A stretch of 17,415 nt of DNA from IMG/VR virus record IMGVR_UViG_2724679538_000009. One strand, given 5' to 3'. A program made the translations under genes and the position numbers. Below are positions 587 to 17,415 of this stretch, piece by piece; position 1 is the stretch's first letter, and each line of letters begins with the position of its first letter. The stretch is from a virus. Lineage: Duplodnaviria; Heunggongvirae; Uroviricota; Caudoviricetes. The notes below the pieces were generated by a model. The model searched no databases. It was given only the letters and a program-made list of their open reading frames with translations, and had not been told where the DNA came from.

Positions 587-882
587 TTATTTTTACTTGT
601 AGTGTAAAAAGATCGTTTCCCTCACAGTCGCTGACTTTCTTAAACAAACTTTAAAAATCAAATAACTATCGAATATTCCTACGATCCACCATCATCTTTC
701 CCCTGCATAATGATGCACTTGTTCGCCAGGTCACCTTTTGCTCTTTTATTGACGGGTGGATTTATTAGCGGGCATGTTCATTTATAGAGAATCTATTTTT
801 TAAACTTATTTATTAAAGCTTTTTTCATTCTTCACTGGCGGGTTCTGACGACACTAAACGCTCATTTATCAGGAGATATCGT

Positions 883-1170: not shown

Positions 1171-1172
1171 TG

Positions 1173-1778
1173 ATGTGGCTGAAATATATCGCGTCTATGA
1201 TTATTTTCGTTCTTTTCCCACTCAACGCCTCTGAACCGCCGAGAGCCTCTCTGGCATGGCGAAACGAACTAATTCGTACCGCTCGAGAAGTCTGGGGACT
1301 GAATGCCCCAGTGGCCGACTTTGCCGGGCAATTACACCAGGAGTCCGCCTGGCAGCCAATGGTACGTTCCCCCGTTGGCGCACAAGGTATGGCGCAATTC
1401 ATGCCTGCTACAGCGACATGGGTAAGCCAGTTGTATCCGCAGTTGCGTGAAAACAAACCGTATAACCCAACCTGGGCGATTCGCGCGCTGGTGCAATATG
1501 ACCAGCATTTGTGGAAAAACATCTCTGCGAAAAATGATTGTCAGCGTATGGCGTTTACCCTAAGCGCCTATAACGGCGGTCAGGGATGGGTTAATCGGGA
1601 TAAAAAACTGGCTGTATCCAAAGGGCTAGATGCCACTCTCTGGTTTGGTCATGTTGAGCAAGTCAACGCCGGGCGCAGCGCCACGAACTGGCGAGAAAAT
1701 CGTCGCTATCCAAAGATGATTCTCTATCAACACGCCGCCCGCTATTTACTCTGGGGACAGGCAAGCTGTCTTCACTAA
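1173..1778 (+). CDS. Lytic transglycosylase (SLT-domain) endolysin with N-terminal signal/SAR-like hydrophobic segment
   Basis: SLT signature HQESAW...SPVGAQGMAQFMPATA (catalytic Glu-Ser, GxxGxMQ). N-terminus MWLKYIASMIIFVLFPLNA is hydrophobic. Start placed at ATG 1173, 2 nt after the holin stop, rather than the overlapping upstream ATG at 1074. Confidence 0.75.
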   Translation: MWLKYIASMIIFVLFPLNASEPPRASLAWRNELIRTAREVWGLNAPVADFAGQLHQESAWQPMVRSPVGAQGMAQFMPATATWVSQLYPQLRENKPYNPTWAIRALVQYDQHLWKNISAKNDCQRMAFTLSAYNGGQGWVNRDKKLAVSKGLDATLWFGHVEQVNAGRSATNWRENRRYPKMILYQHAARYLLWGQASCLH

Positions 1779-1790
1779 TCAGAGGGGCCG

Positions 1791-2105
1791 ATGAAACTCA
1801 GTATCGATTTTTGGGAAGTGATCTCCCTTATGCTTTCCTTCGTTGGATTAATGTTTGCTGCCGGAAAATTGCTGTTAGCGCAAATTGAAAAAAGACTTAA
1901 TGAGCGTTTTGAATCTCTGGAAAACGCGCGCCGGGAATCAGAAACAAACTGGTCGAAACTGGAAAGAGAATTTCTCGAATTTCGTGCCGAGCTTCCGCTG
2001 CATTATGTCCGCAGAGAAGATTATCTTCGTGGCCAGGCAGTATTAGAAGCAAAGCTGGATGCCTTATATAGCAAAATAGAGCTATTACAACGCGGTAGCT
2101 ATTAA
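1791..2105 (+). CDS. Bitopic membrane protein with periplasmic coiled-coil (i-spanin- or releasin-like lysis accessory protein)
   Basis: 104 aa; N-terminal transmembrane helix (ISLMLSFVGLMFAAGKLLLA) followed by a charged heptad-rich helical region; GAGGGG Shine-Dalgarno upstream. No embedded lipoprotein (o-spanin) ORF was found. Confidence 0.45.
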   Translation: MKLSIDFWEVISLMLSFVGLMFAAGKLLLAQIEKRLNERFESLENARRESETNWSKLEREFLEFRAELPLHYVRREDYLRGQAVLEAKLDALYSKIELLQRGSY

Positions 2106-2222
2106 ATTCAATTTTTTCTCTAAAGCAGATTAAAAGATCCTTCACCTTCACTACGTCAGAATACATTTCAACGATAACGAAGTGAGCGTTAACGAATCAG
2201 CGATAATTAAGGGACACCCTAT

Positions 2223-2678
2223 ATGGAAATTTTATCAGTAATGAATTCTGTTGTGACCAGATTATGTGAACAGAATCCCGAAATGGATGTATCTATTTCA
2301 TCGGTTGATGCCCATAAATATATTCCGCAGACGCAGCAAGTTACAGTGATTATTAATTATAGCGGTTCTCTATTTGCCATGTCTGAAAGCAGTGATGCTC
2401 TCGTGCAACAGCAAACGCTCCGTTTAACTGCCACCGTTATTGTTGGCAAAAATTGTGACGCGTTAAACGCACTGGACCGCATACGCAGCGCACTGGGGGG
2501 GATCCAGCTTCCTGATTGCGAGCGTCTTCTTTGGCTTGAAAAAGAAATCAATGCAGGCGAGAGCGGTGGTTTCTGCCGCTACATCCTGGAAATGGCGACC
2601 AGCTCGCTGTTTATCGCGAAACGGGAAAGCACGGACCTTACCCTGCTTACTGAAGTTAATTACGAGGAAACTGAATGA
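2223..2678 (+). CDS. Hypothetical acidic protein (possible tail completion/virion protein)
   Basis: 151-aa ORF with an SD-like AAGGGA upstream. Translationally coupled to the next ORF (ATGA overlap). Position between the lysis cassette and the sheath gene. No recognisable motif. Confidence 0.45.
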   Translation: MEILSVMNSVVTRLCEQNPEMDVSISSVDAHKYIPQTQQVTVIINYSGSLFAMSESSDALVQQQTLRLTATVIVGKNCDALNALDRIRSALGGIQLPDCERLLWLEKEINAGESGGFCRYILEMATSSLFIAKRESTDLTLLTEVNYEETE

Positions 2679-2872
2679 AATACATCTACAACGGCCCGGC
2701 AAGCGGCGTCACCCTTGCCGACGGACAAGAAATCTTATTGTGGCCGAACAGTGAAATTGATCTGCCAGAAGACAACGAGTGGGTCATGACCATGATTGCC
2801 CGCAATCATCTGACTCCTGTCATCACTCAGGAAGAACAAAATAACGGAGAGGAAATTGTACATGGCAGCTAA
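2675..2872 (+). CDS. Small hypothetical protein
   Basis: 65-aa ORF, ATGA-coupled to the upstream ORF and overlapping the sheath start by 11 nt. Acidic; function unknown. Confidence 0.35.
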   Translation: MKYIYNGPASGVTLADGQEILLWPNSEIDLPEDNEWVMTMIARNHLTPVITQEEQNNGEEIVHGS

Positions 2873-4283
2873 TTATCTGCACGGTGTAGAAACCATTGAA
2901 ATTGAAACCGGCCCGCGTCCGGTTAAAGCGGTAAAATCCGCCGTCATCGCTTTAATCGGTACGGCCCCCTGTGGTCCGGTAAATAAACCAACATTATGCC
3001 TTTCTGAAAGCGATGCTGCGCAGTTTGGTTCGACTCAGGCTAACTTTACGATCCCGCAGGCGTTAAAGGCGATTTACGACCATGGCGCCGGTACAGTGGT
3101 GGTAATTAATGTGCTGGATCCGGTAAAACATGGACTGCATGTTGCCAATGAAACTATTACGTTCAATAGTGCCGATAAAGCTAAATTAGCTCATCCGGGA
3201 GTAAGTTCAGTAATATTAAGACCAAGTACCAATTCCACTACGTACAAAAATACATCTTACAATGTTAATGCTGCAGATGGCGTTATTACCCGTACCGGAA
3301 CTGAAATCCCGGCAGGGGCGAAGGTTTACGCGACGTATACCTATGTTGACCCTACAAAGGTCACCGCAGCCGATATTATCGGTGCCGTTAATACCGCAGG
3401 CGATCGCACGGGGATGAAACTGCTACAGGACACCTATAACCTGTATGGTTTCTACGCCAAAATCCTGCTTGCTCCCGTGTTCTGTACGCAAAAATCAGTA
3501 ACTACCGAGCTGATTGCACAAGCGGAAAAACTTGGTGCGATTACCTACATTGATGCCCCGATTGGGACGACATTCCAGCAGGTATTGGCAGGACGCGGTT
3601 CGCAAGGGGCTATCAACTTCAACACCAGCTCTGATCGTGCGCGTTTATGTTACCCACACGTCAAAGTTTACGATGGCATCACTAACCAGGAAGTTCTCGA
3701 ACCGCTCTCTTCGCGCGCTGCCGGGCTACGTGCCAAAGTAGACCTCGAAAAAGGTTTCTGGTGGAGCAACTCAAACCAGGAAATTCAGGGTATTACCGGT
3801 ATTGAACGTTCGCTTTCCGCAATGATTGATGATCCTCAAAGCGAAGTGAATCAGCTCAACGAAAACGGCATTACCACTATTTTCAATAGTTACGGCTCTG
3901 GTCTGCGCTTGTGGGGCAACCGCACAGCGGCATGGCCTACCGTGACCCATATGCGTAACTTTGAAAACGCCCGCCGGACAGGCGATGTAATTAATGAGTC
4001 AATCCGTTATTTCAGTCAGCAGTATATTGATATGCCGATTAATCAGGCGCTGATTGATGCCCTGACCGAATCGGTAAATACCTGGGGCCGTAAGCTGATT
4101 GCCGACGGCGCACTGCTTGGCTTTGAGTGCTGGTACGATCCGGCGCGAAATTCACCGACCGAACTCAGCGCCGGGCATTTATTGCTGAGCTATAAATTCA
4201 CCCCGCCACCGCCGCTGGAACGTCTGACGTTTGAAACTGAAATTACTTCTGAATATTTAGTCTCTCTGGAGAGCAATAGCTAA
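2862..4283 (+). CDS. Contractile tail sheath protein
   Basis: 473 aa from ATG 2862 (GGAGAGGAA upstream; the ORF track uses an upstream TTG at 2856). Size and position immediately upstream of the tube gene are typical of Mu gpL / P2 FI-type sheath proteins. Confidence 0.85.
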   Translation: MAANYLHGVETIEIETGPRPVKAVKSAVIALIGTAPCGPVNKPTLCLSESDAAQFGSTQANFTIPQALKAIYDHGAGTVVVINVLDPVKHGLHVANETITFNSADKAKLAHPGVSSVILRPSTNSTTYKNTSYNVNAADGVITRTGTEIPAGAKVYATYTYVDPTKVTAADIIGAVNTAGDRTGMKLLQDTYNLYGFYAKILLAPVFCTQKSVTTELIAQAEKLGAITYIDAPIGTTFQQVLAGRGSQGAINFNTSSDRARLCYPHVKVYDGITNQEVLEPLSSRAAGLRAKVDLEKGFWWSNSNQEIQGITGIERSLSAMIDDPQSEVNQLNENGITTIFNSYGSGLRLWGNRTAAWPTVTHMRNFENARRTGDVINESIRYFSQQYIDMPINQALIDALTESVNTWGRKLIADGALLGFECWYDPARNSPTELSAGHLLLSYKFTPPPPLERLTFETEITSEYLVSLESNS

Positions 4284-4807
4284 TGGCTGGAAAAATTCAA
4301 ATTAACCGTATTACCAACGCCAATATTTATCTCGATGGTAATAACCTTTTAGGTCGTGCAACCGAAATTAAATTGCCGGATGTCAGTTTAATTATGCAAG
4401 AGCATAAGGCACTGGGTATGGTCGGCAAAATCGAACTCCCGGCAGGTTTCGATAAACTGGAGGGCGAAATTAAATGGAACTCCTTTTATCAGGACGTCAT
4501 GCGTAAAACGGCAAACCCGTGGCAGGCGGTGGCATTACAGTGCCGCTCCAGTATTGATTGCTATAACTCCCAGGGGAAAGCGAATCAATTAGCGTTAGTG
4601 ACACATTTAACCGTGATGTTTAAAAAAAATCCCCTGGGCACATTTAAACAGAATGAAAACCCGGAATTCAGCAGCGCCTTTGGCTGTACTTATATTAAAC
4701 AGGTGGTCGATGGTGAAACACTGCTGGAGCTGGATTACCTGGCGAATATTTTCCGCGTTAACGGCGTGGATCAATTAAGTACCTATCGCAATAACATCGG
4801 TGGCTAA
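4283..4807 (+). CDS. Tail tube protein (P2 FII-like)
   Basis: 174 aa; TAATG stop-start overlap with the sheath gene; size and order match tail tube proteins. Confidence 0.8.
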   Translation: MAGKIQINRITNANIYLDGNNLLGRATEIKLPDVSLIMQEHKALGMVGKIELPAGFDKLEGEIKWNSFYQDVMRKTANPWQAVALQCRSSIDCYNSQGKANQLALVTHLTVMFKKNPLGTFKQNENPEFSSAFGCTYIKQVVDGETLLELDYLANIFRVNGVDQLSTYRNNIGG

Positions 4808-4811
4808 GTTA

Positions 4812-4831
4812 TTCGGGGCTACGGCCCCGAA
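4812..4831 (+). terminator. Stable stem-loop immediately downstream of the tube gene (possible partial terminator/attenuator)
   Basis: ttcggggc-tacg-gccccgaa forms an 8-bp GC-rich stem with a 4-nt loop, 5 nt after the tube stop codon. No downstream U-run, so not a canonical intrinsic terminator. Confidence 0.3.
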
Positions 4832-4857
4832 CTTCGCAAAATAAATAAGGATACAAA

Positions 4858-5175
4858 ATGAAAGAGCATTATATCTTACAGTTCCCGTTTACTTCAGCGG
4901 CGGGAGACGTAATTAACACTCTGCAATTACGTCGCCTGAAAGTAAAAGATATGCGCAACGCGCGCCGGATCAGCGAAAAGCCAGAAGAGTGGGATGAACC
5001 GCTGATGGCGGCGATGACCGGACTGGTGCCAGAAGATTTAGCTGAAATGGATTTGCTGGATTACCAGGCATTGCAGAAACGATTTCAATCCATGCTTAGC
5101 GTGGCTACAGAATCCGCCACTGTTATGGCAAGCGATGGCGTTACTGGCGAGATGGTTTCGCTTTCCGCCCAGTGA
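4858..5175 (+). CDS. Tail assembly chaperone (gpE/G-like)
   Basis: 105-aa acidic ORF between tube and tape-measure genes, the conserved position of the frameshifted chaperone pair in long-tailed phages. A +1-frame continuation is open to 5263. Confidence 0.55.
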   Translation: MKEHYILQFPFTSAAGDVINTLQLRRLKVKDMRNARRISEKPEEWDEPLMAAMTGLVPEDLAEMDLLDYQALQKRFQSMLSVATESATVMASDGVTGEMVSLSAQ

Positions 5176-5251
5176 GATAGACGCCCTTACCGTCGATGAC
5201 TTTAGCAACTGGCTGGATGAAGCCAGCGCCCAAATAAAAATCGAATATGAC

Positions 5252-5272
5252 TCGCAGACCTGATGTCTGCGA
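5252..5272 (+). other. Perfect 8-bp inverted repeat (tcgcagac-ctgat-gtctgcga) in the chaperone-tape measure spacer
   Basis: Read directly from sequence. Overlaps the end of the +1-frame extension (stop at 5261-5263). No following U-run. Confidence 0.4.
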
Positions 5273-5363
5273 GTCCTTCAAGGCCCACCAGGTTTATTTC
5301 TTCCCAGTCCATTTTTCAGAAAACTAACCAGCGGGCCATCACCAATTTATAAGAGAAACAATT

Positions 5364-7739
5364 TTGGCCAACGATATTATTACCCAGCTTCAGGCGCGTA
5401 ATGAGACGTTGACGCAGGCAATAGCCCGTTACGGCTCACTCAACGCCAGAACATTGTTAGCTCTCTCTACTCAGCAAGCGACAGTTATCAAACTAACGCA
5501 GCGGCTTGCCGATTCCGCTCTCCGCCTGGAGGAAAATAGCCGCAGCCGCGCTAATCTGATGGAGAAAACCCACACATTTGCCGGGCAATTTAGCAAAGTA
5601 TTCAATGTTGAAGCCCCCGACTGGAAGTTGCCGTATGAGTTCCAGGACAACATGGTCAATATGGCGACCAAAGGTGGGATGAATGATACAACTCGCGAGA
5701 CGCTCAGCCTTAATCTGCGCGACTGGAGCATGGATTTTAACCAGCATCAGACCACCTTACAGAACGCAGCCCAAACGCTGATCGAAGGCAATTTGTCGTC
5801 GATACAGGATCTCAACCGTTATATGCCGGAGATCGCCAAAGCTGCCACCGCCACGCGCGAAAGTGCTGAAACATGGGCGAATGCCGCGCTCGCAACCCAT
5901 GATCGACTGAATATTGCGCCAGAAAATTTCCACGTCGCGCAAAACATGATGTACGGCATTAGCAAAAGCGGTGGGCCTGCCGTTGCCGAGCAAACGCTGT
6001 GGATAGACAAATTTGCAGGTAAAACCGGCGCTCAGGGTCTGGAAGGTATGGCTGAACTGACTGCCGCCATGCAGATCGCCATGAAAAACGGAGCCAGCGC
6101 CAGTGCGGCGGCGGAGAATTTCGACCACTTTCTGCAAACCACCTTTTCGAAAAAGACCGATAACTGGTTCGCCAGCCAGGGCGTCGATCTGCAAGGCTCT
6201 CTGCTTGAACATCAGCAAAACGGTATGGGTGTTAGCGAAGCCATGACTCATATCGTACAAATGCAGCTTGAGAAGATGAATCCGGCGATCCTCGACACCT
6301 TCAAACGCACTATGCAGATTGAAGATTTATCTGCTCGCAGCAATGCGCTGCAATCGATGGTGACGCAATTTAATCTAGGCGAAATGTTCGGCGATGCGCA
6401 AACGGTGGAATTCCTGGCACCTATGCTGGCGAATATGGAGGAATATCGCCAGTTAAAAACCTCTGCCATGCAAGCCACCAGCAAGAATCTGATTGATGCC
6501 GACTTTTCTGCGCAAATGGCCTCGCCCATTGAACAGACTAAAGCGTTACAGCTGGCGTTAAATGATTTATGGCTCAGCATTGGCTTGCAATTAATGCCGC
6601 TGATTGGCGAGCTGGCACAAAGCCTTACGCCGGTTATTCGTCAGTTCAGCGCCTGGCTACGTGAGCACCCGACACTGGTGCAAAACATCGCGAAAATCGT
6701 CGGGGCGATTTGGCTGTTTAACGGTGCGCTGAATGTTTTAAAGCTGGGCGCGAACCTCATCACCTCGCCGTTTATTCGTCTGGTCGATATCTTCCTGAAA
6801 GTCAAGGCAAGTCTGGCGCTCACAGGCGGGGCAAGTAAGATGCTATCAGCGGTTAAGTCATTGGGTGGCGGCGCAAAATGGCTAATGCAACTGCTTGGTC
6901 GTGGCCTGATTAGCGCACTGAAACAGGTAGGTCAGACCGTCTTCTGGTTGGGTAGGGTTTTATTGATGAATCCCATTGGCCTGGTCATCACCGCAATTGC
7001 GGGTGCTGCTTATCTGATTTATCGCAACTGGGAGCCTATCTCCAGGTTCTTTTCGACCATCTGGCAACGTATCACCACGGCCTTTGACGGCGGTATTGCA
7101 GGGATTTGCCGGTTGATTCTCGACTGGTCGCCGCTGGCTTTGTTCTATAGCGCCTTTTCCAGTGTGATGAATTGGTTTGGTGTCGAGATGCCTGCAAGTT
7201 TTAGCGAGTTCGGCAGCAATCTTCTGGGCAGTCTGGTTGACGGCATAATGAATGCCTTCCCCGCTCTGAAAGGCATTATTGATCAGGTAAAAAACGTCAT
7301 CCCAGACTGGCTAAAAACCACGATGGGTATTAGTACAGAAGGATCGGCTACAGCTATTACAAGCACGACTAATACCGCATCCGTCTCCCCCGCGACCGTT
7401 GTTCCAGGCGTTGCCGGTGCGATTTTAACGCCTCCGGTGGGGAAACAACTCGCGCCATCCAGTAAAACGACAACGCCGCCATCGGCACCTGCGGCAAAAA
7501 ATACAGCCGCCAAACCCGCATCGGCCTCTTTACCAGGTAAATCCGTAACCAAACCGGCGACGCTACCTTCCCGTTCCTCTGGAAAAGTTCAGGTGAATTT
7601 TTCGCCACAGATTACCGTGCAGGGTAACGGACAAAACACCACTAAAGAGATTCAGAACGTGTTGACGATGAGTAAACGCGAACTGGAAAGAATGATTAAC
7701 GACGTAATGGCGCAGCAGCAGCGCCGGGGGTATGCCTGA
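5364..7739 (+). CDS. Tail tape measure protein
   Basis: 791 aa; helical N-terminal half, hydrophobic central segments, Pro/Thr/Ala/Ser-rich C-terminal region; located between chaperone and baseplate genes. The only start after the in-frame stop at 5325-5327 is TTG at 5364 (AAGAG upstream), so the start codon is uncertain. Confidence 0.8.
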   Translation: MANDIITQLQARNETLTQAIARYGSLNARTLLALSTQQATVIKLTQRLADSALRLEENSRSRANLMEKTHTFAGQFSKVFNVEAPDWKLPYEFQDNMVNMATKGGMNDTTRETLSLNLRDWSMDFNQHQTTLQNAAQTLIEGNLSSIQDLNRYMPEIAKAATATRESAETWANAALATHDRLNIAPENFHVAQNMMYGISKSGGPAVAEQTLWIDKFAGKTGAQGLEGMAELTAAMQIAMKNGASASAAAENFDHFLQTTFSKKTDNWFASQGVDLQGSLLEHQQNGMGVSEAMTHIVQMQLEKMNPAILDTFKRTMQIEDLSARSNALQSMVTQFNLGEMFGDAQTVEFLAPMLANMEEYRQLKTSAMQATSKNLIDADFSAQMASPIEQTKALQLALNDLWLSIGLQLMPLIGELAQSLTPVIRQFSAWLREHPTLVQNIAKIVGAIWLFNGALNVLKLGANLITSPFIRLVDIFLKVKASLALTGGASKMLSAVKSLGGGAKWLMQLLGRGLISALKQVGQTVFWLGRVLLMNPIGLVITAIAGAAYLIYRNWEPISRFFSTIWQRITTAFDGGIAGICRLILDWSPLALFYSAFSSVMNWFGVEMPASFSEFGSNLLGSLVDGIMNAFPALKGIIDQVKNVIPDWLKTTMGISTEGSATAITSTTNTASVSPATVVPGVAGAILTPPVGKQLAPSSKTTTPPSAPAAKNTAAKPASASLPGKSVTKPATLPSRSSGKVQVNFSPQITVQGNGQNTTKEIQNVLTMSKRELERMINDVMAQQQRRGYA

Positions 7740-8692
7740 TGTATGCCGTTTTAGGAGAGATTGAATTTAAGGTTGTCACATTCTGGGACGGCTTTAAAAG
7801 CACAATGGGCGTGGATTACGCCACACATGCCCGTATAGAAGGCAAACCCGGCGTGCAGTTTATTGGCGATAAGCTGGATATGCTGGCGCTGGAATTTTCC
7901 CTGCACAGCCAGTTTTGCCAGCCCACAACAGAGCTGAACCGACTGCGTGAAGCCATGCTTGCTCACAAGGCGATGGCACTGGTATTTGGCAATGGCGATT
8001 ATCGCGGCTGGTTTGTGATTACGGAGCTAACCGCCACCCACCAGCACACCGATCCCTGGGGCAATGTGATTGCCCAAAACGGAACGATGTCGCTCCAGGA
8101 GTACACCGGCGATCCTAAAAATCCACTTTTACCTCCGGCGATTACCACCCAGGAGCCCAACATCGAGGAAAAGGCGAGCGATTTTCCCGACAAGGTGGAG
8201 TCCTGGTTTGATCAGATATTAAACGCCATTGAAGAAGGTATGCGTAAGGCCAAAGAGATGCTGGATGAACTGACACAATCCATTGAAGATATTAAAAAAA
8301 CGGTGGCAAAAGTGAAAGCACTGATTAAAGAGGCCAAAGCGTTAAAAGAAAAGTGTGAAAAGATAATTACGTCGTTGAAAAAGACAATCGACGCCATCGA
8401 AACCCTGTTTAAACAGCCGATGGATCTGCAAACGCTGGCAGGACTCCCAAAAGCGTTGTCGGCGCAGATTAAAGCTTTACTGGGTAACATGCCAGGAATC
8501 CGGGACTGCGCCAATGACGCCAGTACGCTGGTTGACCATGCTCAGGCGCTTTTCGATGACATTACCAGCGACATCGCCGAAACGACGTTTGATAAAGCAG
8601 CAACGTTGGTTGATCAGGCACGAACAACGGTACAACGAACCACTCCAGCAGTGAGTCAGTTTGCTGCCGCAACCATTACGAGGAGCTGGTGA
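7739..8692 (+). CDS. Tail protein, gpU-like N-terminal domain (P2 gpU / Mu gpN DNA-circulation-like) with C-terminal coiled-coil extension
   Basis: 317 aa; TGATG overlap with the tape-measure stop. The N-terminal ~110 aa follow the P2 gpU pattern as recalled (MxxVLGxxxF...LVFGNGDYRGWFVITEL). C-terminal ~170 aa are Lys/Glu/Ala-rich and predicted helical. Confidence 0.55.
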   Translation: MYAVLGEIEFKVVTFWDGFKSTMGVDYATHARIEGKPGVQFIGDKLDMLALEFSLHSQFCQPTTELNRLREAMLAHKAMALVFGNGDYRGWFVITELTATHQHTDPWGNVIAQNGTMSLQEYTGDPKNPLLPPAITTQEPNIEEKASDFPDKVESWFDQILNAIEEGMRKAKEMLDELTQSIEDIKKTVAKVKALIKEAKALKEKCEKIITSLKKTIDAIETLFKQPMDLQTLAGLPKALSAQIKALLGNMPGIRDCANDASTLVDHAQALFDDITSDIAETTFDKAATLVDQARTTVQRTTPAVSQFAAATITRSW

Positions 8693-8901
8693 TGCGATAC
8701 CTTGAACATATCACCACCGACGGCGAACGCTGGGATAATCTGGCATGGCATTACTATGGCGATGCGCTGGCTTATGAACGCATTATCGCCGCCAATCCAC
8801 ATGTCGCCATTTACCCGGTACTACCTTCCGGTATTCAGCTCATCATTCCGGTCATTTCCGTCAACAAAACCGTATCGGAGATCCCACCATGGCTGAGATA
8901 A
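8692..8901 (+). CDS. Tail protein X-like (P2 gpX family, LysM-like)
   Basis: 69 aa from ATG 8692 (AGGAG 6 nt upstream, TGATG overlap). Pattern DGERWDNLAWHYYGD...AANPHV resembles P2 gpX (GDTLDAICVRYYGR...AANPGL) as recalled. Confidence 0.6.
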   Translation: MRYLEHITTDGERWDNLAWHYYGDALAYERIIAANPHVAIYPVLPSGIQLIIPVISVNKTVSEIPPWLR

Positions 8902-9929
8902 GCGTAACTGGCGGCGTCTTTGCCACGCTCGCGCCCATTTTTACCCTCTGGTATGGGCATAAAGATATCACTTATGACATCACGCCTTATGTCACCAGCA
9001 TCCGTTACCAGGACAGTATTAAAAACGAGTCGGATACCATCGCGATTACACTGGATGACACCGATGGACGCTGGATAAAAGAGTGGTATCCCGGCAAAGG
9101 CGATACGCTGGCGCTGCATATGGGTTATCAGGGGGAAAAACTGCTCGATTGTGGTCAATATATTATTGATAAAATTGATATTTCAGCGCCACCTTCCACG
9201 GTAAATATTGATGGCATCGCCACTTCCGTCAATCAGGCGCTGCGCACCCGTAACAGCCAGGGCTTTGAAGAAACGACGCTTTCGGCTATCGCCAGCCGTA
9301 TCGCCCAAACGCACGGTCTGAAACTGGTGGGCAAAATCGAGCCGCTCACCATCGACCGGGTAACGCAGTATGGTGAAACCGATGTCGGATTTCTCAAACG
9401 TCTGGCCAGTGAATATGGTTATGCCGTAAAAGTGACGACAAAAGAGCTGATTTTTTCACATTTACCCGCGCTGCGCTGCCTGGCACCGGTAAAAACGATC
9501 GACCGCAAAGACGTTTCGCATTTCACCTTCAAAGATACCATTAACCGTATCTACAAAAACGCCACCGTACAGCATCAAAATAGTAAGAAAAAAGAACTGG
9601 TTATCTACACCCACGACAGCCAGCAAAAACCGTCTGCCCGTGGAGTCGGCACCAGTGCCGACACGCTAAAACTGAACAGTCGGGCGACGGACGTTGGCGC
9701 AGCACAGGCAAAGGCCAACGCTGCACTCGACAGCCACAACGAATATCAGCAAACCGGGACGCTCACAATGATGGGCTGCCCGGAACTGACGGCGGGCAAT
9801 AAAATTGAACTGACCGATTTTGGCGTGATTTCCGGTCAGTGGCTAATTGATAAATCTACTCACAGTTTTGTGCGCAGCGGCTATACCACTGAAATCGACG
9901 TGTCGCGCGGGCCAGCGACCAGCCAGTAA
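8889..9929 (+). CDS. Baseplate hub / late control D-like protein (P2 gpD / Mu gpP family)
   Basis: 346 aa; follows the tape-measure, U-like and X-like genes as in P2 (T-U-D). Size and conserved-looking central region (FLKRLASEYGY) are consistent with gpD-type hub proteins. Confidence 0.75.
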   Translation: MAEISVTGGVFATLAPIFTLWYGHKDITYDITPYVTSIRYQDSIKNESDTIAITLDDTDGRWIKEWYPGKGDTLALHMGYQGEKLLDCGQYIIDKIDISAPPSTVNIDGIATSVNQALRTRNSQGFEETTLSAIASRIAQTHGLKLVGKIEPLTIDRVTQYGETDVGFLKRLASEYGYAVKVTTKELIFSHLPALRCLAPVKTIDRKDVSHFTFKDTINRIYKNATVQHQNSKKKELVIYTHDSQQKPSARGVGTSADTLKLNSRATDVGAAQAKANAALDSHNEYQQTGTLTMMGCPELTAGNKIELTDFGVISGQWLIDKSTHSFVRSGYTTEIDVSRGPATSQ

Positions 9930-9938
9930 GGAGGAAAT

Positions 9939-10640
9939 ATGAAAGGAGTAACCCGGCAAACGGGGATTATCAGCGATATTGACGAAACCAGCGTTCGGGT
10001 GCGGGTCACGCTCCCGGAGTGTGACAACCTGAAGAGCAACTGGCTTGCGGTACTTCAACGCAATTCCCAGGACAATAAAGACTACTGGCTACCGGATATG
10101 GGCGAGCAAGTGGAAGTTCTGCTGGACAATAACGGTGAAGATGGCGTGGTGCTGGGCGCAGTTTATTCTACGGTTGACACCGCGCCTGTGGCCTCGCGCG
10201 ATAAACGTTACGTCCAGTTTTCTGATGGCGCAGCGTTTGAATATGACCGCAGCACGCACCAGCTGACGATTAACGGCGGTATCGAGAAAATCGTGATTGA
10301 GGTTATCGACAGTACCCGCCTGACATCACCCAACGTTGAGATTAAAGCCCAACAGGTCATCGTGACTTCCGATACTGTCGATGTTAAAGCGACCGATGTC
10401 AGCATCGACGCCACTAAGGTCGATGTTAAAGCGGCAGCAGTGACGGTAGACGCGCCCATGAGCACCTTTACTGGCAACGTCACGGTAATGAAAAAACTCA
10501 CCTGGCTTGGCGGGATGGCAGGAAGTGGAGGCATCGGTAACGCCGCCACGATAACTGGCAATGTCAACGTGATCGGCAACGTTCAGGCCAGCGGCGCATT
10601 GCAGGACAGCGGTGGCAACTCCAACCACCATACACACTGA
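9939..10640 (+). CDS. Baseplate spike protein (P2 gpV-like)
   Basis: 233 aa; GGAGG Shine-Dalgarno upstream; repetitive beta-strand-like VDVKA motifs consistent with a beta-helical spike; C-terminus ends in a His cluster (SNHHTH); located directly before the gp25/W-like gene. Confidence 0.7.
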   Translation: MKGVTRQTGIISDIDETSVRVRVTLPECDNLKSNWLAVLQRNSQDNKDYWLPDMGEQVEVLLDNNGEDGVVLGAVYSTVDTAPVASRDKRYVQFSDGAAFEYDRSTHQLTINGGIEKIVIEVIDSTRLTSPNVEIKAQQVIVTSDTVDVKATDVSIDATKVDVKAAAVTVDAPMSTFTGNVTVMKKLTWLGGMAGSGGIGNAATITGNVNVIGNVQASGALQDSGGNSNHHTH

Positions 10641-10645
10641 CGTTT

Positions 10646-10675
10646 AACCCGCCTGATGGCGGGTTTTCTCTTTTT
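10646..10675 (+). terminator. Rho-independent terminator between spike and gp25-like genes
   Basis: aacccgcc-tgat-ggcgggtt is a perfect 8-bp stem with a 4-nt loop, followed by ttctcttttt, 6 nt after the spike stop codon. Confidence 0.65.
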
Positions 10676-10738
10676 AATCAATCAGTTTTCTAAATCGCTT
10701 TAATATCGCCACAGCCCGTTCAGGGCGAAAATACCCTC

Positions 10739-11098
10739 ATGAACACAAAAACACGACCCTCAACGCTGCACTGGCAACCGGCCTTGCAGCGGCCTGAAGA
10801 ATACGTCTGCGGGCTGGATGATATTCACCAGGCGATACACATCATTCTGCGCACACCGCGCGGCAGTGATCCTCACAGACCGCTGTTTGGCAGCAACTTG
10901 TGGCACTACATCGATTACCCCATCGAGCGGGCAATCCCGCATGTGGTACGGGAGTCGGTGGAAGCCATCCGCCAGTGGGAACCGCGCTGTCGGTTGCTGA
11001 AGGTGACACCAGTAATCGACGGTGAACATCTGACGTTACGTGTGCAATGGCGCGCCGCTGACGGCGTTATCAACTCAACGGAGGTGTTATGGCGATAG
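10739..11098 (+). CDS. Baseplate wedge protein (P2 gpW / T4 gp25-like)
   Basis: 119 aa; motifs typical of the GPW/gp25 family (RPLFGSNLWHY, WEPRCRLLKV); overlaps the J-like gene start by 10 nt. Confidence 0.8.
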   Translation: MNTKTRPSTLHWQPALQRPEEYVCGLDDIHQAIHIILRTPRGSDPHRPLFGSNLWHYIDYPIERAIPHVVRESVEAIRQWEPRCRLLKVTPVIDGEHLTLRVQWRAADGVINSTEVLWR

Positions 11099-12204
11099 CC
11101 GAACCCAATTTTATTGACCGCGATCCTGCGCAAATTACCAGTGAGATGATTGCGCAATATGAAGATGCCAGCGGTAAAAAACTCTATCCGGCACAGGCTG
11201 AGCGGTTGCTCATCGACCTGTTTGCCTATCGTGAAAACCTTGTACGCATCGCCATTCAGGAAGCGGCGAAACAAAACCTGGTCGCGTATTCCCGCGCGCC
11301 AATGCTGGATTATTTAGGGGAGTTGGTGGGAGTTCACCGTTTGCCTGCGCAGCCTGCAAAAACGACGTTGCAGTTTTCGGTCGTCAGTGCGTATACCAGC
11401 AATATCCTGATTCCCCAGGGGACGCGGGCCAGTGCTTCTGATAGCGTGATGTTCGCCACCGATGAAGATGTTCTGCTTCCGGCCAGGAGTTTGCATATCG
11501 CCGTTCCTGCCACCAGCCTCGCAGCAGGTGAACAGGGCAACGGCTGGCAGCCTGCACAAATTAGCGCACTGGTCGACAGGATTGGTCATTATGACATCAA
11601 CGTAACCAACCTGACTGCGTCAACGGGCGGCTGCGGTGAAGAGAGCGATGACGCATTGCGCCAGCGTATCCAACTGGCACCAGAAAGCTTTAGTAATGCG
11701 GGCAGCTATGGCGCATACCGCTTTCATACGCTTTCTGTTAGCCAGTCGATTATTGACGTTGCAGTACTGGGGCCGGACGAGGGATTGCCAGAAGGCTGCG
11801 TGGAGATCTACCCGCTAACCCTGAACGGACTGCCAGGAATAGAACTGCTCGCGCAAATCGAACAGGAGGTTAGCAAGGAGAAAAAACGTCCGCTGACCGA
11901 CAAAGTGAGTGCGAAATGCGCTCTTCGAGTGCCGTATGAGATCCGTGCTCAGCTAACGCTGTTTACCACCGCCGATCAGGAGACAACGCTGGCTGCGGCG
12001 CGTAAAGCGATTAGCCTCTGGACGCAACAGCGGCAGAAACATCTGGGGCAGGACATTGTGCCAAACCAGATAATCAAAGTGTTACAGGTCGATGGCGTCT
12101 ATGACGTTGCGCTGAATATGCCTACAAAACGTATTTTGCAGGCGCATGAATGGGCGGAATGCACTGCAATAGACGTCACGATTGCCGGAGTCAGCGATGG
12201 ATAA
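11089..12204 (+). CDS. Baseplate J-like protein (P2 gpJ / Mu gp47 family)
   Basis: 371 aa; GGAGG 4-5 nt upstream; position between W-like and I-like genes. Confidence 0.85.
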   Translation: MAIAEPNFIDRDPAQITSEMIAQYEDASGKKLYPAQAERLLIDLFAYRENLVRIAIQEAAKQNLVAYSRAPMLDYLGELVGVHRLPAQPAKTTLQFSVVSAYTSNILIPQGTRASASDSVMFATDEDVLLPARSLHIAVPATSLAAGEQGNGWQPAQISALVDRIGHYDINVTNLTASTGGCGEESDDALRQRIQLAPESFSNAGSYGAYRFHTLSVSQSIIDVAVLGPDEGLPEGCVEIYPLTLNGLPGIELLAQIEQEVSKEKKRPLTDKVSAKCALRVPYEIRAQLTLFTTADQETTLAAARKAISLWTQQRQKHLGQDIVPNQIIKVLQVDGVYDVALNMPTKRILQAHEWAECTAIDVTIAGVSDG

Positions 12205-12916
12205 ATTGCTGCCACCGCCGCCGCTTGCCAGCGATGAGCGTTTTTCGATTCTGGCAAACATCGCCGCCGAGCGTTTTGCCCAACTCGATCTGACGGCGTT
12301 GATGGTTTATCTGGTCGACCTGGTTGATGCTTCGGCATTACCAGCCCTTGCAGAACAATTTCACGTTCAGGGGCTGGAAGGTTGGTTATTTACCACCGAT
12401 GAGCGGGAGAAGCGCGAGTTAATTAAACAAGCCATTGAACTGCATAAATATAAAGGAACAATTTGGGCGGTACGGCGGGTGCTGGAAATACTTTCCTTAC
12501 CCGGAACTATTTCAGAATGGTTTGAATATGGGGGAAGGGCTTATTTTTTTAAGGTAAATATTACACTAGAGGAAAAAGGATTAAATAAAGATGAATTCAA
12601 TGCACTTATCACATTAATTCATGAATATAAAAATGTTCGTTCAAAGCTGGAAAGCATTGTTATTTGGCTTATTAATCGAAGCCCAATACCAGTTATTGGC
12701 AGCGCCATGCAAGGAGGGGAAGTCATTACAGTATTGCCTCCTGTTGCAGAAAGCCTCAGCCAGTCATCAGGAATATTTTTGGCGACGGGTTATTGTGTGG
12801 AGGAATATATCCAACTACTACCTTATCAACCCGATCGCCTTACACAATCCCAACCGATGAAGGTCGGCACAGGATACTGGAGCACCGAAATTATGTCTGT
12901 ATATCCGGAGGAATAA
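12197..12916 (+). CDS. Tail protein I-like (P2 gpI family)
   Basis: 239 aa from ATG 12197 (GGAG 6 nt upstream; the track start is TTG 12182). [17 protein letters not shown] matches the P2 gpI CHKGTIGAIRRVVEPL region as recalled; C-terminal ...SVYPEE resembles the gpI ...VITVYPG end. C-terminal half is AT-rich. Confidence 0.8.
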
Positions 12917-14496
12917 TGGCAAGTGAATTTTTTACAATATTAACTACTGCAGGCAAAGCCAAAATTGCCTCTGCATTGACGGAGCAAAAACAGATCCGTC
13001 TGCAAACTATGGTAGTTGGCGACGGTAATGGTAAATATATCGAACCGACAGAAAGTCAGACTAAAGTAGTCCATGAGGTCTGGCGTGGTCAGCTCAATAC
13101 ATTAAAAATTGCGCCAGATAATCCGGCCTGGGTTATCGCAGAAGCGATTATTCCCGAACAAGTCGGAGGCTGGTATGTACGCGAAGTTGGGTTACTGGAT
13201 ACCGACGGCACGCTGGTCGCTATTGGTAAATTTCCGGAAACCTATAAGCCACGATTACCTGCGGGGGCCAGTAAGCAAATCGTTATACGCGCGGTCATGG
13301 AAGTCACCAATGCAGACGCGGTGACGCTTTTGATCGACCCTTCAGTCGTTGTGGCAACCAGGGAATATGTCGATGACGCGTTGAAAACACATCAGCAATC
13401 ACGAAATCATCCTGATGCGACGCTAACACAAAAAGGTTTTACACTGCTGAGCAATGCGACTAATAGCGATGATGAAACCAAAGCTGCCACACCAAAAGCG
13501 GTAAAAACGGCATATGACCTGGCAAATAGCAAAGCTGCCACCAGTCATAATCATGCCTGGAATCAGATTACTGGTATCCCTGATGGTACACTGACGCAGA
13601 AAGGAGTCGTTAAACTTAACAACACAACAAATAGCACCAGTACAACGGAAGCTGCAACGCCAAGTGCTGTTAAAGCAGCGATGGACAAGGCTATTGCTGC
13701 GGCACCGTCCAGCCATACCCATGCCTGGGGGCAAATAACAGGTATCCCCGACGGTACGCTGACACAAAAAGGGGTCGTGAAACTTAATAATGCGACCAAC
13801 AGCACCAGTACGACGGAAGCTGCAACGCCGAACGCGGTTAAGGCAGCGATGGATAAGGCTATTGCTGCGGAAAGCTGTCCTGTAGGGATGCCTATACCCT
13901 GGCCATCTGATTCTGTACCTTCAGGCTACGCTCTGATGACTGGTCAGACATTTAATAAAACCTCCTATCCCAAACTGGCAATTGCATATCCATCTGGCGT
14001 TATTCCTGATATGCGCGGATGGATAATTAAAGGAAAACCATCCAGTGGGCGCGCTATATTATCTACTGAACTGGATGGAGTTAAATCACATAACCATACG
14101 GGCAGTATTTCTAGTACCAATTTAGGGACAATAACATCTACCTCTACGGACTTAGGAACAAAAACTACAGCTTCATTTAATCATGGAAGTAGAAATACAA
14201 GCACATCTGGAGAACATACACACCGAATACCAACTGATGGTGCAGAAGGTAAAGATGGACCGTCTTTATGGAACAGCCCCAATTCAGATGAGAACTACAG
14301 AGAACCTACTGAGTCTGCTGGTAGTCATTATCATAGTATTACGATTGGCGCCCATGCACATACAATCGCACTGGGAAGTCATACACATAATATTGTGTTA
14401 GGTACACATAATCACTCAATTATCATCAATAACACTGGCAATACAGAAAATACTGTTAAAAACATTGCATTCAATTATATTGTGAGGCTTGCATGA
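12916..14496 (+). CDS. Tail fibre protein (P2 gpH-like N-terminus, repeat-containing shaft, His-box C-terminal tip)
   Basis: 526 aa from ATG 12916 (GGAGG 6 nt upstream). N-terminal ~200 aa closely track P2 gpH as recalled ([41 protein letters not shown]...[14 protein letters not shown]). Contains 56-aa tandem repeats and C-terminal HxH motifs ([32 protein letters not shown]). Confidence 0.85.
13420..13870 (+). repeat. In-frame tandem direct repeats, 168-bp period (about 2.7 copies) inside the tail fibre gene
   Basis: Units begin at 13420, 13588 and 13756, each encoding TLTQKG(V/F)..[27 protein letters not shown]...[12 protein letters not shown]. Copies 2 and 3 are near-identical at DNA level. 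Confidence 0.75.
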
Positions 14497-15200
14497 ATAC
14501 TTTTACTTTTTCCGATAACGCACAAATTTTATCTGTTTTTAATTTTTCACCAGACACACAAGAATTTATTGGTGAGTCCAATGTATATATAGCACCAAAC
14601 ACTGGACTACCGAATTACTGCACATTAACACCACCACCACAAAAAATTGCAGGTTTTACTTCTATATGGTCAATTAATAAATGGGAACTTATTGAAGATC
14701 ATCGAGGCCAAACTGTTTATAACAAAGTTGATGGCAGCCAGATTATTATTAATAAATTGGGTCAATTGCCTGAAACTGTCACCATCATTTCCCCTACCAG
14801 TACTTTTGAGCGTTGGGATGGCGAAAAATGGCAGCCATCAATTGATGATGCTAAACAGGCGAAATGTGCCGAAATCAAAACATTGCGCGACTCCATCACT
14901 ACCGACTACATCATCATCAACGACAATTACTTCCACAGTGATACAAGCAGCCGCATCCAACAACTCTCACTCACAAAAATGGGAGCGGAGAAAAAAATTC
15001 CGCCAGGTTTAATGTGGAAAACTAAAAATAATGGTCTGACTGAGTTAACCAACGAAATCGCTGCCCAGTTTGAATCCGTCACAATGGATCACGATATACG
15101 CTTGTTTGCCAACGCCCAACGCCATATCGCGGCGGTGGAAGCTCTGGACGATATTCAGTCGGTACTCGACTACGATTATTCAACAGGCTGGCAACCATGA
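14493..15200 (+). CDS. Tail fibre assembly protein (lambda Tfa / P2 gpG family)
   Basis: 235 aa; ATGA overlap with the fibre stop. N-terminal region [32 protein letters not shown]...[13 protein letters not shown] parallels lambda Tfa (EFIGEGDAYIPPHTGLP...PPDIPAGF...WHLVEDHRGKTVY) as recalled. Confidence 0.8.
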
Positions 15201-15652
15201 GTAAAACTACAGTCTGGCTCGCTTGCTATAAAGGGCGAACAGAGCACCGGGTTATTGCGAGACTGGCTGACTGGCTTACACGCAAAATCACTCGCGGCAG
15301 TTATTCCCACTGTGAATTAGCCGTAGCACATGGAGAAAAGAGTTACCTTTGTTACTCCGCCTCTCTGCGCGATCGAGGCGTTCGTGGAAAGATAATGCCT
15401 TTACCGCCAGACAAGTGGGATATGCTGCCGCTCCAGGTCAGCCTTCAGGATGTAGAAGCTTTTTTCCGTAAACATGATGGCAAAAAATACGACTGGCGTG
15501 GAGCCTTAGGAATTATCACCGGCAATAAAGAACAGCGCGATCGCCTGTTTTGTAGCGAATTTTGTGCCGAATTTCTGCAATTAAAAGAAAGTTGGCGCTA
15601 TTCCCCAAACCACTTGTACGCTTTAGTTAACAGTTGGCAATATCAACCATAA
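15197..15652 (+). CDS. Putative permuted papain-fold (YiiX/YaeF C92 / LRAT-like) thiol enzyme
   Basis: 151 aa; ATGA-coupled to the tfa stop. His-containing N-terminal motif (GSYSHCELAVAHG) and C-terminal GKKYDW...RLFCSEF resemble the GxxYDF...YCSEV signature of YiiX-type permuted NlpC/P60 proteins as recalled. No transmembrane segment. Confidence 0.4.
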   Translation: MSKTTVWLACYKGRTEHRVIARLADWLTRKITRGSYSHCELAVAHGEKSYLCYSASLRDRGVRGKIMPLPPDKWDMLPLQVSLQDVEAFFRKHDGKKYDWRGALGIITGNKEQRDRLFCSEFCAEFLQLKESWRYSPNHLYALVNSWQYQP

Positions 15653-15657
15653 ACTAC

Positions 15658-15680
15658 GCCGGGCTTCAAGCCCGGCTTTA
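15658..15680 (+). terminator. Terminator-like hairpin ending the tail operon
   Basis: gccgggc-ttcaa-gcccggc stem-loop followed by ttta, 6 nt after the stop of the 151-aa gene. Confidence 0.5.
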
Positions 15681-15796
15681 ATCAGGCTGTATATTCCATC
15701 ACAAACAAAGCACATGCTTATAAATATTCACAGTAATTATATTTCCATATTAACCATCCACTGAGTGAATATAGAAGAATTTAAATACAATAACTA

Positions 15797-15824
15797 TTGC
15801 ATTGTAAATTACATCAAATATAGT
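15797..15824 (+). promoter_or_regulatory. Candidate sigma70 promoter for the glycosyltransferase-like gene
   Basis: TTGCAT, 16-nt spacer, TATAGT within a 180-bp AT-rich spacer about 40 nt upstream of ATG 15866. The spacer contains the palindrome TGTAA-A-TTACA (15803-15813). Hexamer prediction by eye only. Confidence 0.3.
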
Positions 15825-15865
15825 TCACTACTTATATATTTTGCTAATCGCTACAGGGAAATTAC

Positions 15866-16594
15866 ATGTTTATTGTCTCAGTTCTCAGACAAAGTAAGGA
15901 TTTCACTATTAAACATGCACAATGGCTTCACCAGCAGCTGGATGGGTATAATTCCATTTGCATGACGGATGCTTCAGAAATCAAAGGGGTTCAAACCACT
16001 CCATTACTGTATAATTGGCCAGGATGGTGGGCAAAATTAGAGCTATTTAATCCCGAACATCCTGTTCTCGGGAATAAAGATATACTTTATATTGATATTG
16101 ATACTGTAATCGTCGGTGATATTACACAGTTTACTAAAATGAAAAAAGTAACATTACTGAACGACTTCTCGCAGCATGGTTCCAATGCTGCTCCTGCGAC
16201 TGGAATAATGTTCATTCCTGCGGACGCCAAAAAACTTGTCTGGGAAGAGTTTATGAGATCGCCTGAAACTGAAATAAATTCAACCAGAAAGCCGCCATAT
16301 CATGGGGATCAGGGATTTATCGGCAGAGTATGTCATGACGCTGAAAGATGGCAGGATATTTTTCCAGGACAAATTATCAGTTACAAAGCGAATATAGCGA
16401 CGCCTAAAATGATAGGCTTTAATCCTGACTTACACGATGGTAAAGCAAACGGAGAATTGCCATCGGATGCAAAAATTGTATGTTTTCACGGTTCACCTCG
16501 TCCCTGGAACACAGCTCTCCACTGGGTTCCAGGTTTCAGCATAAAAAACACACTCTGCAGCAAATTTAAACAGCTCAAATATTCTCTTCGGTAA
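15866..16594 (+). CDS. GT-A fold glycosyltransferase, GT8-like (DXD and HxxGxxRPW motifs)
   Basis: 242 aa; AGGGAA Shine-Dalgarno upstream. DILYIDIDTVIVGD matches the GT8 DXD region (LgtC KVLYLDIDVLV as recalled) and VCFHGSPRPWN matches the GT8 C-terminal HxxGxxKPW motif. Markedly AT-rich relative to the tail genes; flanked by terminator hairpins. Confidence 0.5.
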   Translation: MFIVSVLRQSKDFTIKHAQWLHQQLDGYNSICMTDASEIKGVQTTPLLYNWPGWWAKLELFNPEHPVLGNKDILYIDIDTVIVGDITQFTKMKKVTLLNDFSQHGSNAAPATGIMFIPADAKKLVWEEFMRSPETEINSTRKPPYHGDQGFIGRVCHDAERWQDIFPGQIISYKANIATPKMIGFNPDLHDGKANGELPSDAKIVCFHGSPRPWNTALHWVPGFSIKNTLCSKFKQLKYSLR

Positions 16595-16614
16595 AAAACT
16601 TTTTTATTGGAAGG

Positions 16615-16635
16615 CGCCGGGCATCACGCCCGGCG
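16615..16635. terminator. Bidirectional terminator-like hairpin between convergent genes
   Basis: cgccgggc-atcac-gcccggcg is a perfect 8-bp stem with a 5-nt loop; A-run and T-run immediately upstream on the plus strand. The nucleotidyltransferase stop codon lies in the loop; 20 nt downstream of the glycosyltransferase stop. Confidence 0.5.
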
Positions 16636-17415
16636 TATCACTGTTTGATACAACAACCCATCCAGTTCCCTGGCATCTCCGTCCCTGCTGTCTGGTAACA
16701 CTGGTGGAATTTCCCCGTGCGCCAGTTCCGCGCGAATAAATGCATGTAACAATGGACGACGCGGACCATATTCCGCTTCTCCCGCGCGCTGTTTACGTTC
16801 CAGCAGCTCGTCTATTTCTGCGCGTAACGGCGCATCAAGTTCGGTTCCCGTCAGTAACTCAGCAAAGCGCATTGGCGGTACGCCTTTTCCCGCTTCAACC
16901 CAACGCACAGCCAGTAATGGTCGCAGCACGTAAAAGTATTTTTTCAGCCGAACTACGTCGCCCTGCAAATAACCGCGAAAGTTTTTCCGCGCCATCGAAT
17001 AATAATGCCAACGCGCACGCAGCGGAGAAAACCACTTCGGCACCATTGCCTTAAGCGGCGTTATCGTTTCTTCATCTTGTTGATAGACCACCGGAGAATC
17101 CAGCCATTCAATCAGCGTCGGATTAGCGCCTTTCAGTAATCCCAGCGCCTTGCGCCACTCCCAGCCTGAAACATCTAACTCGTCGTCAATAGGCAACTCA
17201 ATAACATCGCGCGGCGCCTCCACCCGCAGATACCATTCCAGCGGGTGAACATACAAAAATCGTACATCGTAGTCGCTGTCGGGAGAGGCAAATCCCCAAC
17301 CGCGACTCCCCGATTCGCAGGCGTACAGCACTTTCACGCCATAGCGACGTTCTATTTCTTTTAATTGCTGCGATACCCGTTCGCGCATCGCAGCACTGAC
17401 TCCATTTATTGGCAT
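16624..17415 (-). CDS. Pol-beta superfamily nucleotidyltransferase-domain protein
   Basis: 263-aa ORF whose ATG is the last three bases of the window. N-terminal ESGSRGWGFASPDSDYDV matches the GS-x(9-13)-DxD nucleotidyltransferase signature; helical C-terminal half. Higher GC than the adjacent cargo gene. Confidence 0.6.
   Translation of the reverse strand: MPINGVSAAMRERVSQQLKEIERRYGVKVLYACESGSRGWGFASPDSDYDVRFLYVHPLEWYLRVEAPRDVIELPIDDELDVSGWEWRKALGLLKGANPTLIEWLDSPVVYQQDEETITPLKAMVPKWFSPLRARWHYYSMARKNFRGYLQGDVVRLKKYFYVLRPLLAVRWVEAGKGVPPMRFAELLTGTELDAPLRAEIDELLERKQRAGEAEYGPRRPLLHAFIRAELAHGEIPPVLPDSRDGDARELDGLLYQTVIRRA

Follow-up and report, generated by a model that had tools for sequence, protein, structure and literature searches.

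A glycosyltransferase cassette and its neighbours at the right end of a head-less, Mu-type tail cluster

Genes at the right end of the window

The window analysed here is a stretch of 17,415 nt from a virus record classed in the Caudoviricetes (IMGVR_UViG_2724679538_000009), most of which is a gene cluster for a contractile tail. Its 2.2-kb right end holds three intact open reading frames (ORFs): ORF151 (15197-15652, + strand), encoding a Cys-His protein of 151 aa with a permuted papain fold (YiiX/C92-like); ORF242 (15866-16594, +), encoding a GT8-like GT-A glycosyltransferase (GT) of the P1 PmgQ/P7 HdmD family; and, at 16624-17415 on the - strand, a nucleotidyltransferase (NTase) of the RlaP family. 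An earlier note had read these genes as one variable accessory island after the tail fibre genes, in a position equivalent to the Z/fun cargo site of P2. The coordinates and the fold or family labels it gave hold for all three genes, and the compositional heterogeneity it pointed out is real: GC content is 46.9% in ORF151, 31.9% in the gap that follows, 40.5% in the GT (35% at third codon positions), and 53.2% in the NTase. The single island does not hold. ORF151 is coupled to the tail fibre assembly gene (tfa) in 70 out of 74 loci, and among 5426 complete genomes of Escherichia coli the NTase is present in 1630, ORF151 in 203, and the GT, at this site, in none. The right end of the window is best explained as a junction of three evolutionary units, of which only the GT is variable cargo, and we regard this explanation of the whole as reasonably probable.

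The GT gene lies in a cassette bounded by a repeated hairpin. The 20-nt hairpin (CGCCGGGC...GCCCGGC) is present twice, with copies 958 nt apart: the left copy, D1 (CGCCGGGCttcaaGCCCGGC, 15657-15676, -16.7 kcal/mol), is a direct repeat 90% identical to the right copy (CGCCGGGCatcacGCCCGGC, 16615-16634, -21 kcal/mol), which overlaps the last codons of the NTase (RRA-stop). The spacing of the repeats and the match to E. coli, which skips 15677-16614, define the insert relative to the empty site, one hairpin copy included, as a cassette of 958 bp (15677-16634, +). With a GC content of 32-40%, it is poorer in GC than the tail core (about 50%). The empty site, i.e., a single hairpin between the stop codons of ORF151 and of the NTase, is found in E. 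coli, in two Superficieibacter species, and in E. albertii CP057238 (L194). The latter genome lacks the GT though its ORF151 protein is identical to that of the window, and its fibre tip and the N-terminal half of its tfa are swapped (13871-14928). No complete genome of E. coli carries the GT after ORF151, and the only copies elsewhere in them are distant (66-68% nucleotide identity).

Salmonella genomes show other states of the same site. A contig of Salmonella Kentucky has a 78%-identical GT after ORF151 and the hairpin; LT2-type and Infantis genomes have the hexapeptide acetyltransferase STM4197 (L015, 9772-10248) in place of the GT, directly after the ORF151 homologue; and other Salmonella-type contigs have the acetyltransferase and the GT in tandem at this spot. 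The variable site previously placed downstream of the fibre genes thus exists at the hairpin after ORF151, where there may be nothing, a GT, an acetyltransferase, or both, but it involves one gene of the window and not three. Comparison of the junction across genomes also shows that the three genes are not invariably syntenic: the GT is missing from the site in E. coli, and the NTase occurs without a tail cluster in E. coli HS. Judged by these sequence comparisons, the GT gene is the true variable cargo, a putative moron cassette with defined boundaries, which ORF151 and the NTase are not. The cassette would have recombined recently into the GC-rich hairpin between ORF151 and the convergent chromosomal operon, duplicating the hairpin.

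Homologues of the GT adjoin tfa or fibre genes in prophages of Klebsiella aerogenes and Citrobacter and in phage Chlobot, and a relative lies behind the tail genes, at the genome end, in phage Chuche. In Citrobacter phage phiNP (L099, 4463-6300), the homologue and two further genes make up a block between terS and the lysis genes; one of these two is annotated as an alpha-2,3-sialyltransferase. A relative in Shimwellia is alone in the chromosome. More distant homologues in IMG/VR contigs (30-38% identity) have unrelated contexts and are uninformative.

The GT (phrog_1962) has no Pfam match at E<=0.1, including to Glyco_transf_8, and no NCBIfam match. Its family profile does reach GT8 structures (E 1.2e-8 to 5e-4), and we therefore take it as a remote relative of these enzymes, not a member. 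The structure model has a predicted local distance difference test (pLDDT) score of 95.5, and the closest structures (scores in brackets) are Skp1 alpha-GalT (16.5), glycogenin (16.0), GlyE (15.9), LgtC (15.7), WbbM (15.5), and 3tzt (14.7). Across 51 sequences, D77 never varies, and D79 and H208 are kept in at least 90% of them; these residues correspond to the DxD motif and the C-terminal His. K57 is invariant or nearly so. The protein ends with a basic amphipathic helix (residues 226-241). The ratio of nonsynonymous to synonymous substitution rates (dN/dS) of the GT is 0.057, and all three genes are under purifying selection (0.03-0.08).

The earlier note had also attributed separate promoters and terminators to these genes, which is weakly supported. 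Scans of the region returned 2 promoter-like sites, against 6.3 expected in shuffled sequences, and 3 terminator-like sites, against 3.0 expected; since these numbers are not above expectation, we do not claim independent transcription units as proven. The region does contain the two GC-rich hairpins, which lack good U-tracts, and a promoter-like element upstream of the GT (TTGCAT-16 nt-TATAGT, 15797-15824, +), which is shared with the GT cassettes of Salmonella while the flanks diverge. We infer that this element acts as a promoter, and the GT is likely expressed from its own weak promoter of sigma-70 type. Two further ORFs—one of 66 aa with a GTG start that overlaps the start of the GT (15765-15965), the other of 104 aa in antisense inside the NTase (16740-17054)—have no family support and are probably spurious.

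ORF151 and the slipin-RlaP operon

ORF151 is the conserved last gene of the fibre operon. Its start codon overlaps the stop codon of tfa as ATGA (15197-15200), and in phages SuMu, Pm86, and Pmp12 its homologue overlaps or directly follows the tail fibre assembly gene. A genome-wide scan identified homologues at 80 loci of Enterobacteriaceae, Pasteurellaceae, Neisseriaceae, and Moraxellaceae, of which 74 had enough upstream sequence to be analysed. We searched these for a same-strand ORF of at least 150 aa ending -120 to +40 nt from the start of the homologue. The 70 loci mentioned above have an ORF of the size of tfa ending at that start, usually with an overlap of a few bases. Upstream ORFs without a phmmer link to the tfa of the window belong to tfa families of PHROGs (phrog_8258, phrog_2837, phrog_105). 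The proteins encoded downstream are very diverse, with 238 clusters that include D12 DNA methyltransferases (28 loci), C5 methyltransferases, and integrases. In 10 loci, all in prophages of Pasteurellaceae and Neisseriaceae, the sheath and tube genes are directly downstream; this is the order of P2, and the homologue of ORF151 occupies the G-[x]-FI slot. Judging from gene order, ORF151 is not variable cargo but a fixed and apparently translationally coupled gene at the end of the fibre operon.

The papain-like alpha+beta fold of ORF151 agrees with that of the solved members of the family. Two residues are invariant in 50 sequences: H38, in the motif YSHCE (H38, C39), and C119, in the motif FCSE. 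The catalytic order is circularly permuted: H38 starts a strand (38-45) and is N-terminal to C119, the first residue of a helix (119-126). The protein has no Pfam or NCBIfam match at E<=0.1, including to PF05708, and the sole profile signal is a marginal match to 3kw0 (E 8e-4). It belongs to phrog_1128 and to a family that comprises 82 protein clusters. When E. albertii is compared with E. coli, its dN/dS is 0.034 for a dS of 0.755, the latter close to that of the core gene rluF (0.668). This dN/dS is lower than those of tfa (0.17) and of the sheath (0.23). Members of the family, such as SuMu gp51 (L014, 4944-5465), are widely labelled 'enoyl-CoA hydratase/carnithine racemase-like' in GenBank and PHROGs. 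The label is unsupported by the fold and the motifs and looks like a propagated mis-annotation; gp51 is not discussed in the SuMu paper.

The NTase is the last gene of a slipin-RlaP operon that runs beyond the window. Its match to PF10127 (E 7.6e-97, residues 10-256) scores 324 bits for a cut-off of 23 and covers model positions 1-248 of 249; its dN/dS is 0.07. Like the other two proteins, it has no match in NCBIfam. The slipin gene is directly upstream in the source genome. The three genes form a cluster inasmuch as they are physically adjacent, but the NTase is convergent to the tail genes and part of this other operon. Its distribution is also its own. In E. coli HS the order is lysC - zeta toxin - NTase - slipin - yjbD, without any tail cluster, and in Salmonella the tail cluster is present but NTase and slipin are not. 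In Phytobacter, a gene for an RtcB ligase lies between NTase and slipin, and in Superficieibacter electus the gene of the regulator RtcR is adjacent; no RNA ligase or regulator is adjacent to slipin-RlaP at the locus of E. albertii (the source genome) or E. coli. The zeta-toxin family gene that takes the place of the tail cluster in E. coli HS, between lysC and NTase (L002, 8048-8974), does so in many other strains too, which makes the gap between lysC and yjbD a chromosomal hotspot in its own right.

Upstream of slipin and outside the window (L005, 12700-13000, minus strand), we observed a sigma-54-like promoter sequence (TGGCACgctttTCGCA, TGGCAC-N5-TCGCA). The leader of slipin is about 270 nt long, is structured (z = -4.25), and contains a T-arm-like hairpin (GGGUUCGAUUCCC). 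The search of Rfam over the GT, the NTase, slipin, and the leader region gave only a chance sub-threshold match to SorX, on the hairpin; the leader itself had no Rfam match, and ARAGORN found no tRNA in it. The leader could be an element of Y-RNA/tRNA-like type, such as rsr-rtc operons contain. Damaged RNA 3' ends receive one or two nucleoside monophosphates from RlaP enzymes (PMC12776372). The RlaP of the window would be the distal gene of an opposite-strand operon, an Rtc-type RNA-repair module of the chromosomal island between lysC and yjbD that is unrelated to the tail element.

The tail cluster and its chromosomal setting

The cluster spans positions 1-15652, with all ORFs intact, and comprises a Mor activator, a lysis cassette, and a contractile tail, without head genes. 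The Mor gene (1-345) is divergent, on the minus strand, and next to it are genes for a holin, a lytic transglycosylase, and a lipoprotein. The order is then Mu gp37-like, sheath, tube, tape measure, gpU/X/D-like, baseplate V/W/J/I, fibre, and tfa. The fibre gene (12916-14496) precedes tfa (14493-15200, +), which matches DUF4376 (3.9e-13) and Caudo_TAP (5.7e-5) in Pfam as well as phrog_1807 and phrog_105. The sheath comes first, the fibre and tfa come last, and the cluster ends there; it is because of this Mu-type order, together with the Mor activator, that no sheath gene follows tfa in the window. Given this order, Mor, and the lack of head genes, the element is not a P2-like prophage.

The genomes with the exact proteins of the window (the nearest named cluster is E. 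albertii) have slipin, yjbD, rluF, and the sorbose operon in the flanks. The tail cluster of E. albertii sits between lysC and yjbD, and a homologous cluster is at 5567-21252 of L001. The homologous region of E. coli, between the same two genes, has the same annotation, with no gene for capsid, terminase, integrase, or transposase. Using ORF151 as a marker, the cluster is present in the 203 genomes of E. coli mentioned above, and it is also found in Salmonella (STM4198 region). The cluster is a candidate tailocin or domesticated Mu-type tail. Our search of the literature found no paper describing a tail cluster between lysC and yjbD; the paper on the 'tailocin' of ST131 concerns a different element, which has the gene order of pyocin R2 (P2).

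The C-terminal tip of the fibre and the N-terminal half of tfa form a swappable module of low GC content (36-39%, window 13871-14928): E. albertii CP057238 (L194, 2810-3732) is 99% identical to the window up to 13870, then has an unrelated tip and N-terminal half of tfa, and homology resumes at 14929 with 93% identity. Strict co-variation of the GT with the fibre tip was considered and rejected, as the near-identical fibre of E. coli comes without the GT and Salmonella Kentucky combines the GT with a different tip. The fibre gene also contains internal tandem repeats of about 168 nt (13541-13870; Phage_fiber_2 repeats, identified as blastn self-matches). In the Salmonella copy of the cluster (L015, 1748-4583), gtrABC (STM4204-4206) is inserted between the genes of baseplate V and W. 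With the acetyltransferase after the ORF151 homologue, this means that the cluster gathers glycan-modifying cargo at two sites. Finally, E. coli MSB1_4I (L100, 5268-9442) has a decayed locus, with an IS1 element directly next to the last 67 nt of ORF151, an IS4 that splits the NTase, and an internal stop in slipin.

Interpretation and comparison with known systems

A few observations weigh against a junction of three units with the GT as the variable one. All of the 24 E. albertii contigs read that have the exact tfa allele of the window also carry the GT, which therefore looks locally fixed rather than mobile. The promoter-like element of the GT is below the threshold of the consensus scan and is no strong match to the consensus. 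NTase and slipin follow the tail cluster in Superficieibacter and Phytobacter too, and the physical linkage between them may be old. To our knowledge, Mu and P2 themselves lack ORF151, and this gene is therefore unneeded for tail assembly in general. Finally, the best structural relatives of the GT include GT8 enzymes that modify proteins—Skp1 alpha-GalT, glycogenin, and GlyE—and lipopolysaccharide (LPS) is therefore not its sole candidate acceptor.

The alternative of a single variable accessory or defence island of three genes, possibly acting together at the end of a P2-like prophage, finds some support in the adjacency of genes of different composition, in the assignment of ORF151 and GT by PHROGs to 'moron, auxiliary metabolic gene and host takeover', and in the variability of the region between lysC and yjbD in E. 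coli. Yet the genes have dissimilar distributions in that species, the NTase forms an operon with slipin on the other strand, ORF151 is conserved and tied to tfa, and the element lacks head genes and follows the gene order of Mu. In addition, the defence cargo that had been expected was not recovered: PADLOC (PADLOC-DB v2) gave no match at E<=0.1 for ORF151, GT, NTase, or slipin. The distribution data largely refute this model, which we hold to be very improbable, and the variable cargo consists of glycan-modifying enzymes, not of classical defence systems. For ORF151, the question is rather how it relates to the tail. It would be a cytoplasmic Cys-His enzyme travelling with tfa in Mu-ordered and P2-ordered contractile tails, presumably a hydrolase or acyltransferase that is expressed late and acts for the fibre/adsorption module, not in host defence. 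Alternatively, it could be a moron of wide distribution, for exclusion or host fitness, that became fixed at the 3' end of fibre operons without being a component of the tail module. Its absence from the prototypes Mu and P2 implies that it is dispensable for tail assembly, it occupies the Z/fun slot of P2 in 10 P2-ordered prophages, and it is found after several unrelated tfa families. However, the start/stop overlaps with tfa leave no intergenic room for a promoter, purifying selection on ORF151 exceeds that on structural tail genes, and its position is constant in four bacterial families while the 238 clusters downstream vary. We thus find the moron alternative rather unlikely and retain ORF151 as a probable partner of the fibre genes.

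The GT would be a soluble GT8-like retaining enzyme with a DxD motif, adding an alpha-linked hexose to the LPS core or O-antigen at the cytoplasmic face of the inner membrane. The altered LPS would change the receptor of contractile tails, resulting in lysogenic conversion, i.e., self-protection or exclusion. Modification of a surface glycan that acts as receptor is the most likely role, in view of the GT8 fold, the basic amphipathic C-terminal helix, the company of glycan modifiers at the site, and the recurrent place of the gene beside receptor-binding genes. The main rival holds that the GT glycosylates a phage or tailocin protein, for example the Ser/Thr-rich repeats of the fibre, as a morphogenetic or host-range modifier. 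The nearest GT8 structures and profile matches are indeed protein glycosyltransferases (the three named above), the gene recurs beside fibre and tfa genes, and in E. albertii it is tied to one allele of fibre tip and tfa (24/24 contigs, against 0/1 with the other allele); moreover, P1 PmgQ was historically named a 'putative morphogenetic function'. Against this, the GT gene often converges on tfa and is preceded by an AT-rich leader of its own, an arrangement that suits expression in the lysogen better than late expression; it also occurs alone in the chromosome of Shimwellia and, in phiNP, next to a gene annotated as a sialyltransferase; it is missing from E. coli, where the fibre is near-identical; and P1 pmgQ is dispensable for plaque formation. 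Glycosylation of the fibre is in our opinion distinctly unlikely, and LPS remains the favoured acceptor. One may also join the two genes in a broader reading, in which ORF151 would define an uncharacterised family of Cys-His enzymes partnering fibre and tfa in Mu- and P2-type tails (in fibre maturation, receptor processing, or as a delivered effector) and the GT would give a head-less, chromosomally fixed tailocin a self-immunity matched to its fibre tip. We consider this combination unlikely.

These results correct a tempting annotation shortcut, in that genes found side by side where a prophage-like cluster ends need not form an island; here, a single gene out of the three is cargo. They also define a precise insertion site, the GC-rich hairpin after the fibre operon, which is reusable. 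In E. albertii and Salmonella this site gathers genes that modify surface glycans, which is relevant to the serotype and to the phage and tailocin sensitivity of these pathogens. The more interesting leads are the cluster as a whole, as a possible tailocin, and the ORF151 family, which is well conserved, unstudied, and tightly tied to tail fibre assembly genes across four families of bacteria.

The closest analogy for the position of these genes is Z/fun of P2, which we take to be the variable slot between the tail fibre assembly gene G and the sheath gene FI of P2-like phages. Both are slots right after tfa that hold non-structural genes, and the P2 slot is filled by ORF151 homologues in the 10 prophages mentioned above. 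The equivalence proposed in the earlier note holds to this extent, but the cluster of the window is not in a G-FI slot, its variable position is one gene further on, after ORF151, and no function of T5-exclusion type is implied. The analogy is positional only. The location of Z/fun was not found in the text of Rousset et al., which covers the old/tin hotspot of P2.

For the GT, the nearest counterparts are gtrABC, the Oac acetyltransferases, and GT8 enzymes of lipooligosaccharide and LPS such as LgtC, with which it shares the condition of a low-GC moron next to tail genes. The retaining GT8 fold is common to LgtC and the GT, and both gtrABC and the acetyltransferase are present in the Salmonella version of the tail cluster. 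Unlike the Gtr systems, which are bactoprenol-linked and made of three genes, the GT is a soluble, single-gene enzyme, and it lacks Pfam or NCBIfam membership. P1 PmgQ and P7 HdmD are of the same family as the GT (36% identity over 93% of the length). The gene of P1, which is non-essential (PMC10695390), is in a late operon beside ppp, whereas in the window it forms a cassette of its own at a chromosomal junction. ORF151 differs from YiiX/YaeF-type proteins (MEROPS C92, Pfam PF05708) in that it does not match the Pfam hidden Markov model, is shorter, has its own YSHCE...FCSE signature, and is encoded specifically after tfa genes. Finally, the slipin-RlaP operon shares with RNA-repair operons of the RtcR/RtcB type that contain RlaP a full-length PF10127 domain, a sigma-54-like promoter, and the presence of RtcB or RtcR at the orthologous loci of related genera, with the version of E. 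albertii and E. coli reduced to slipin and RlaP.

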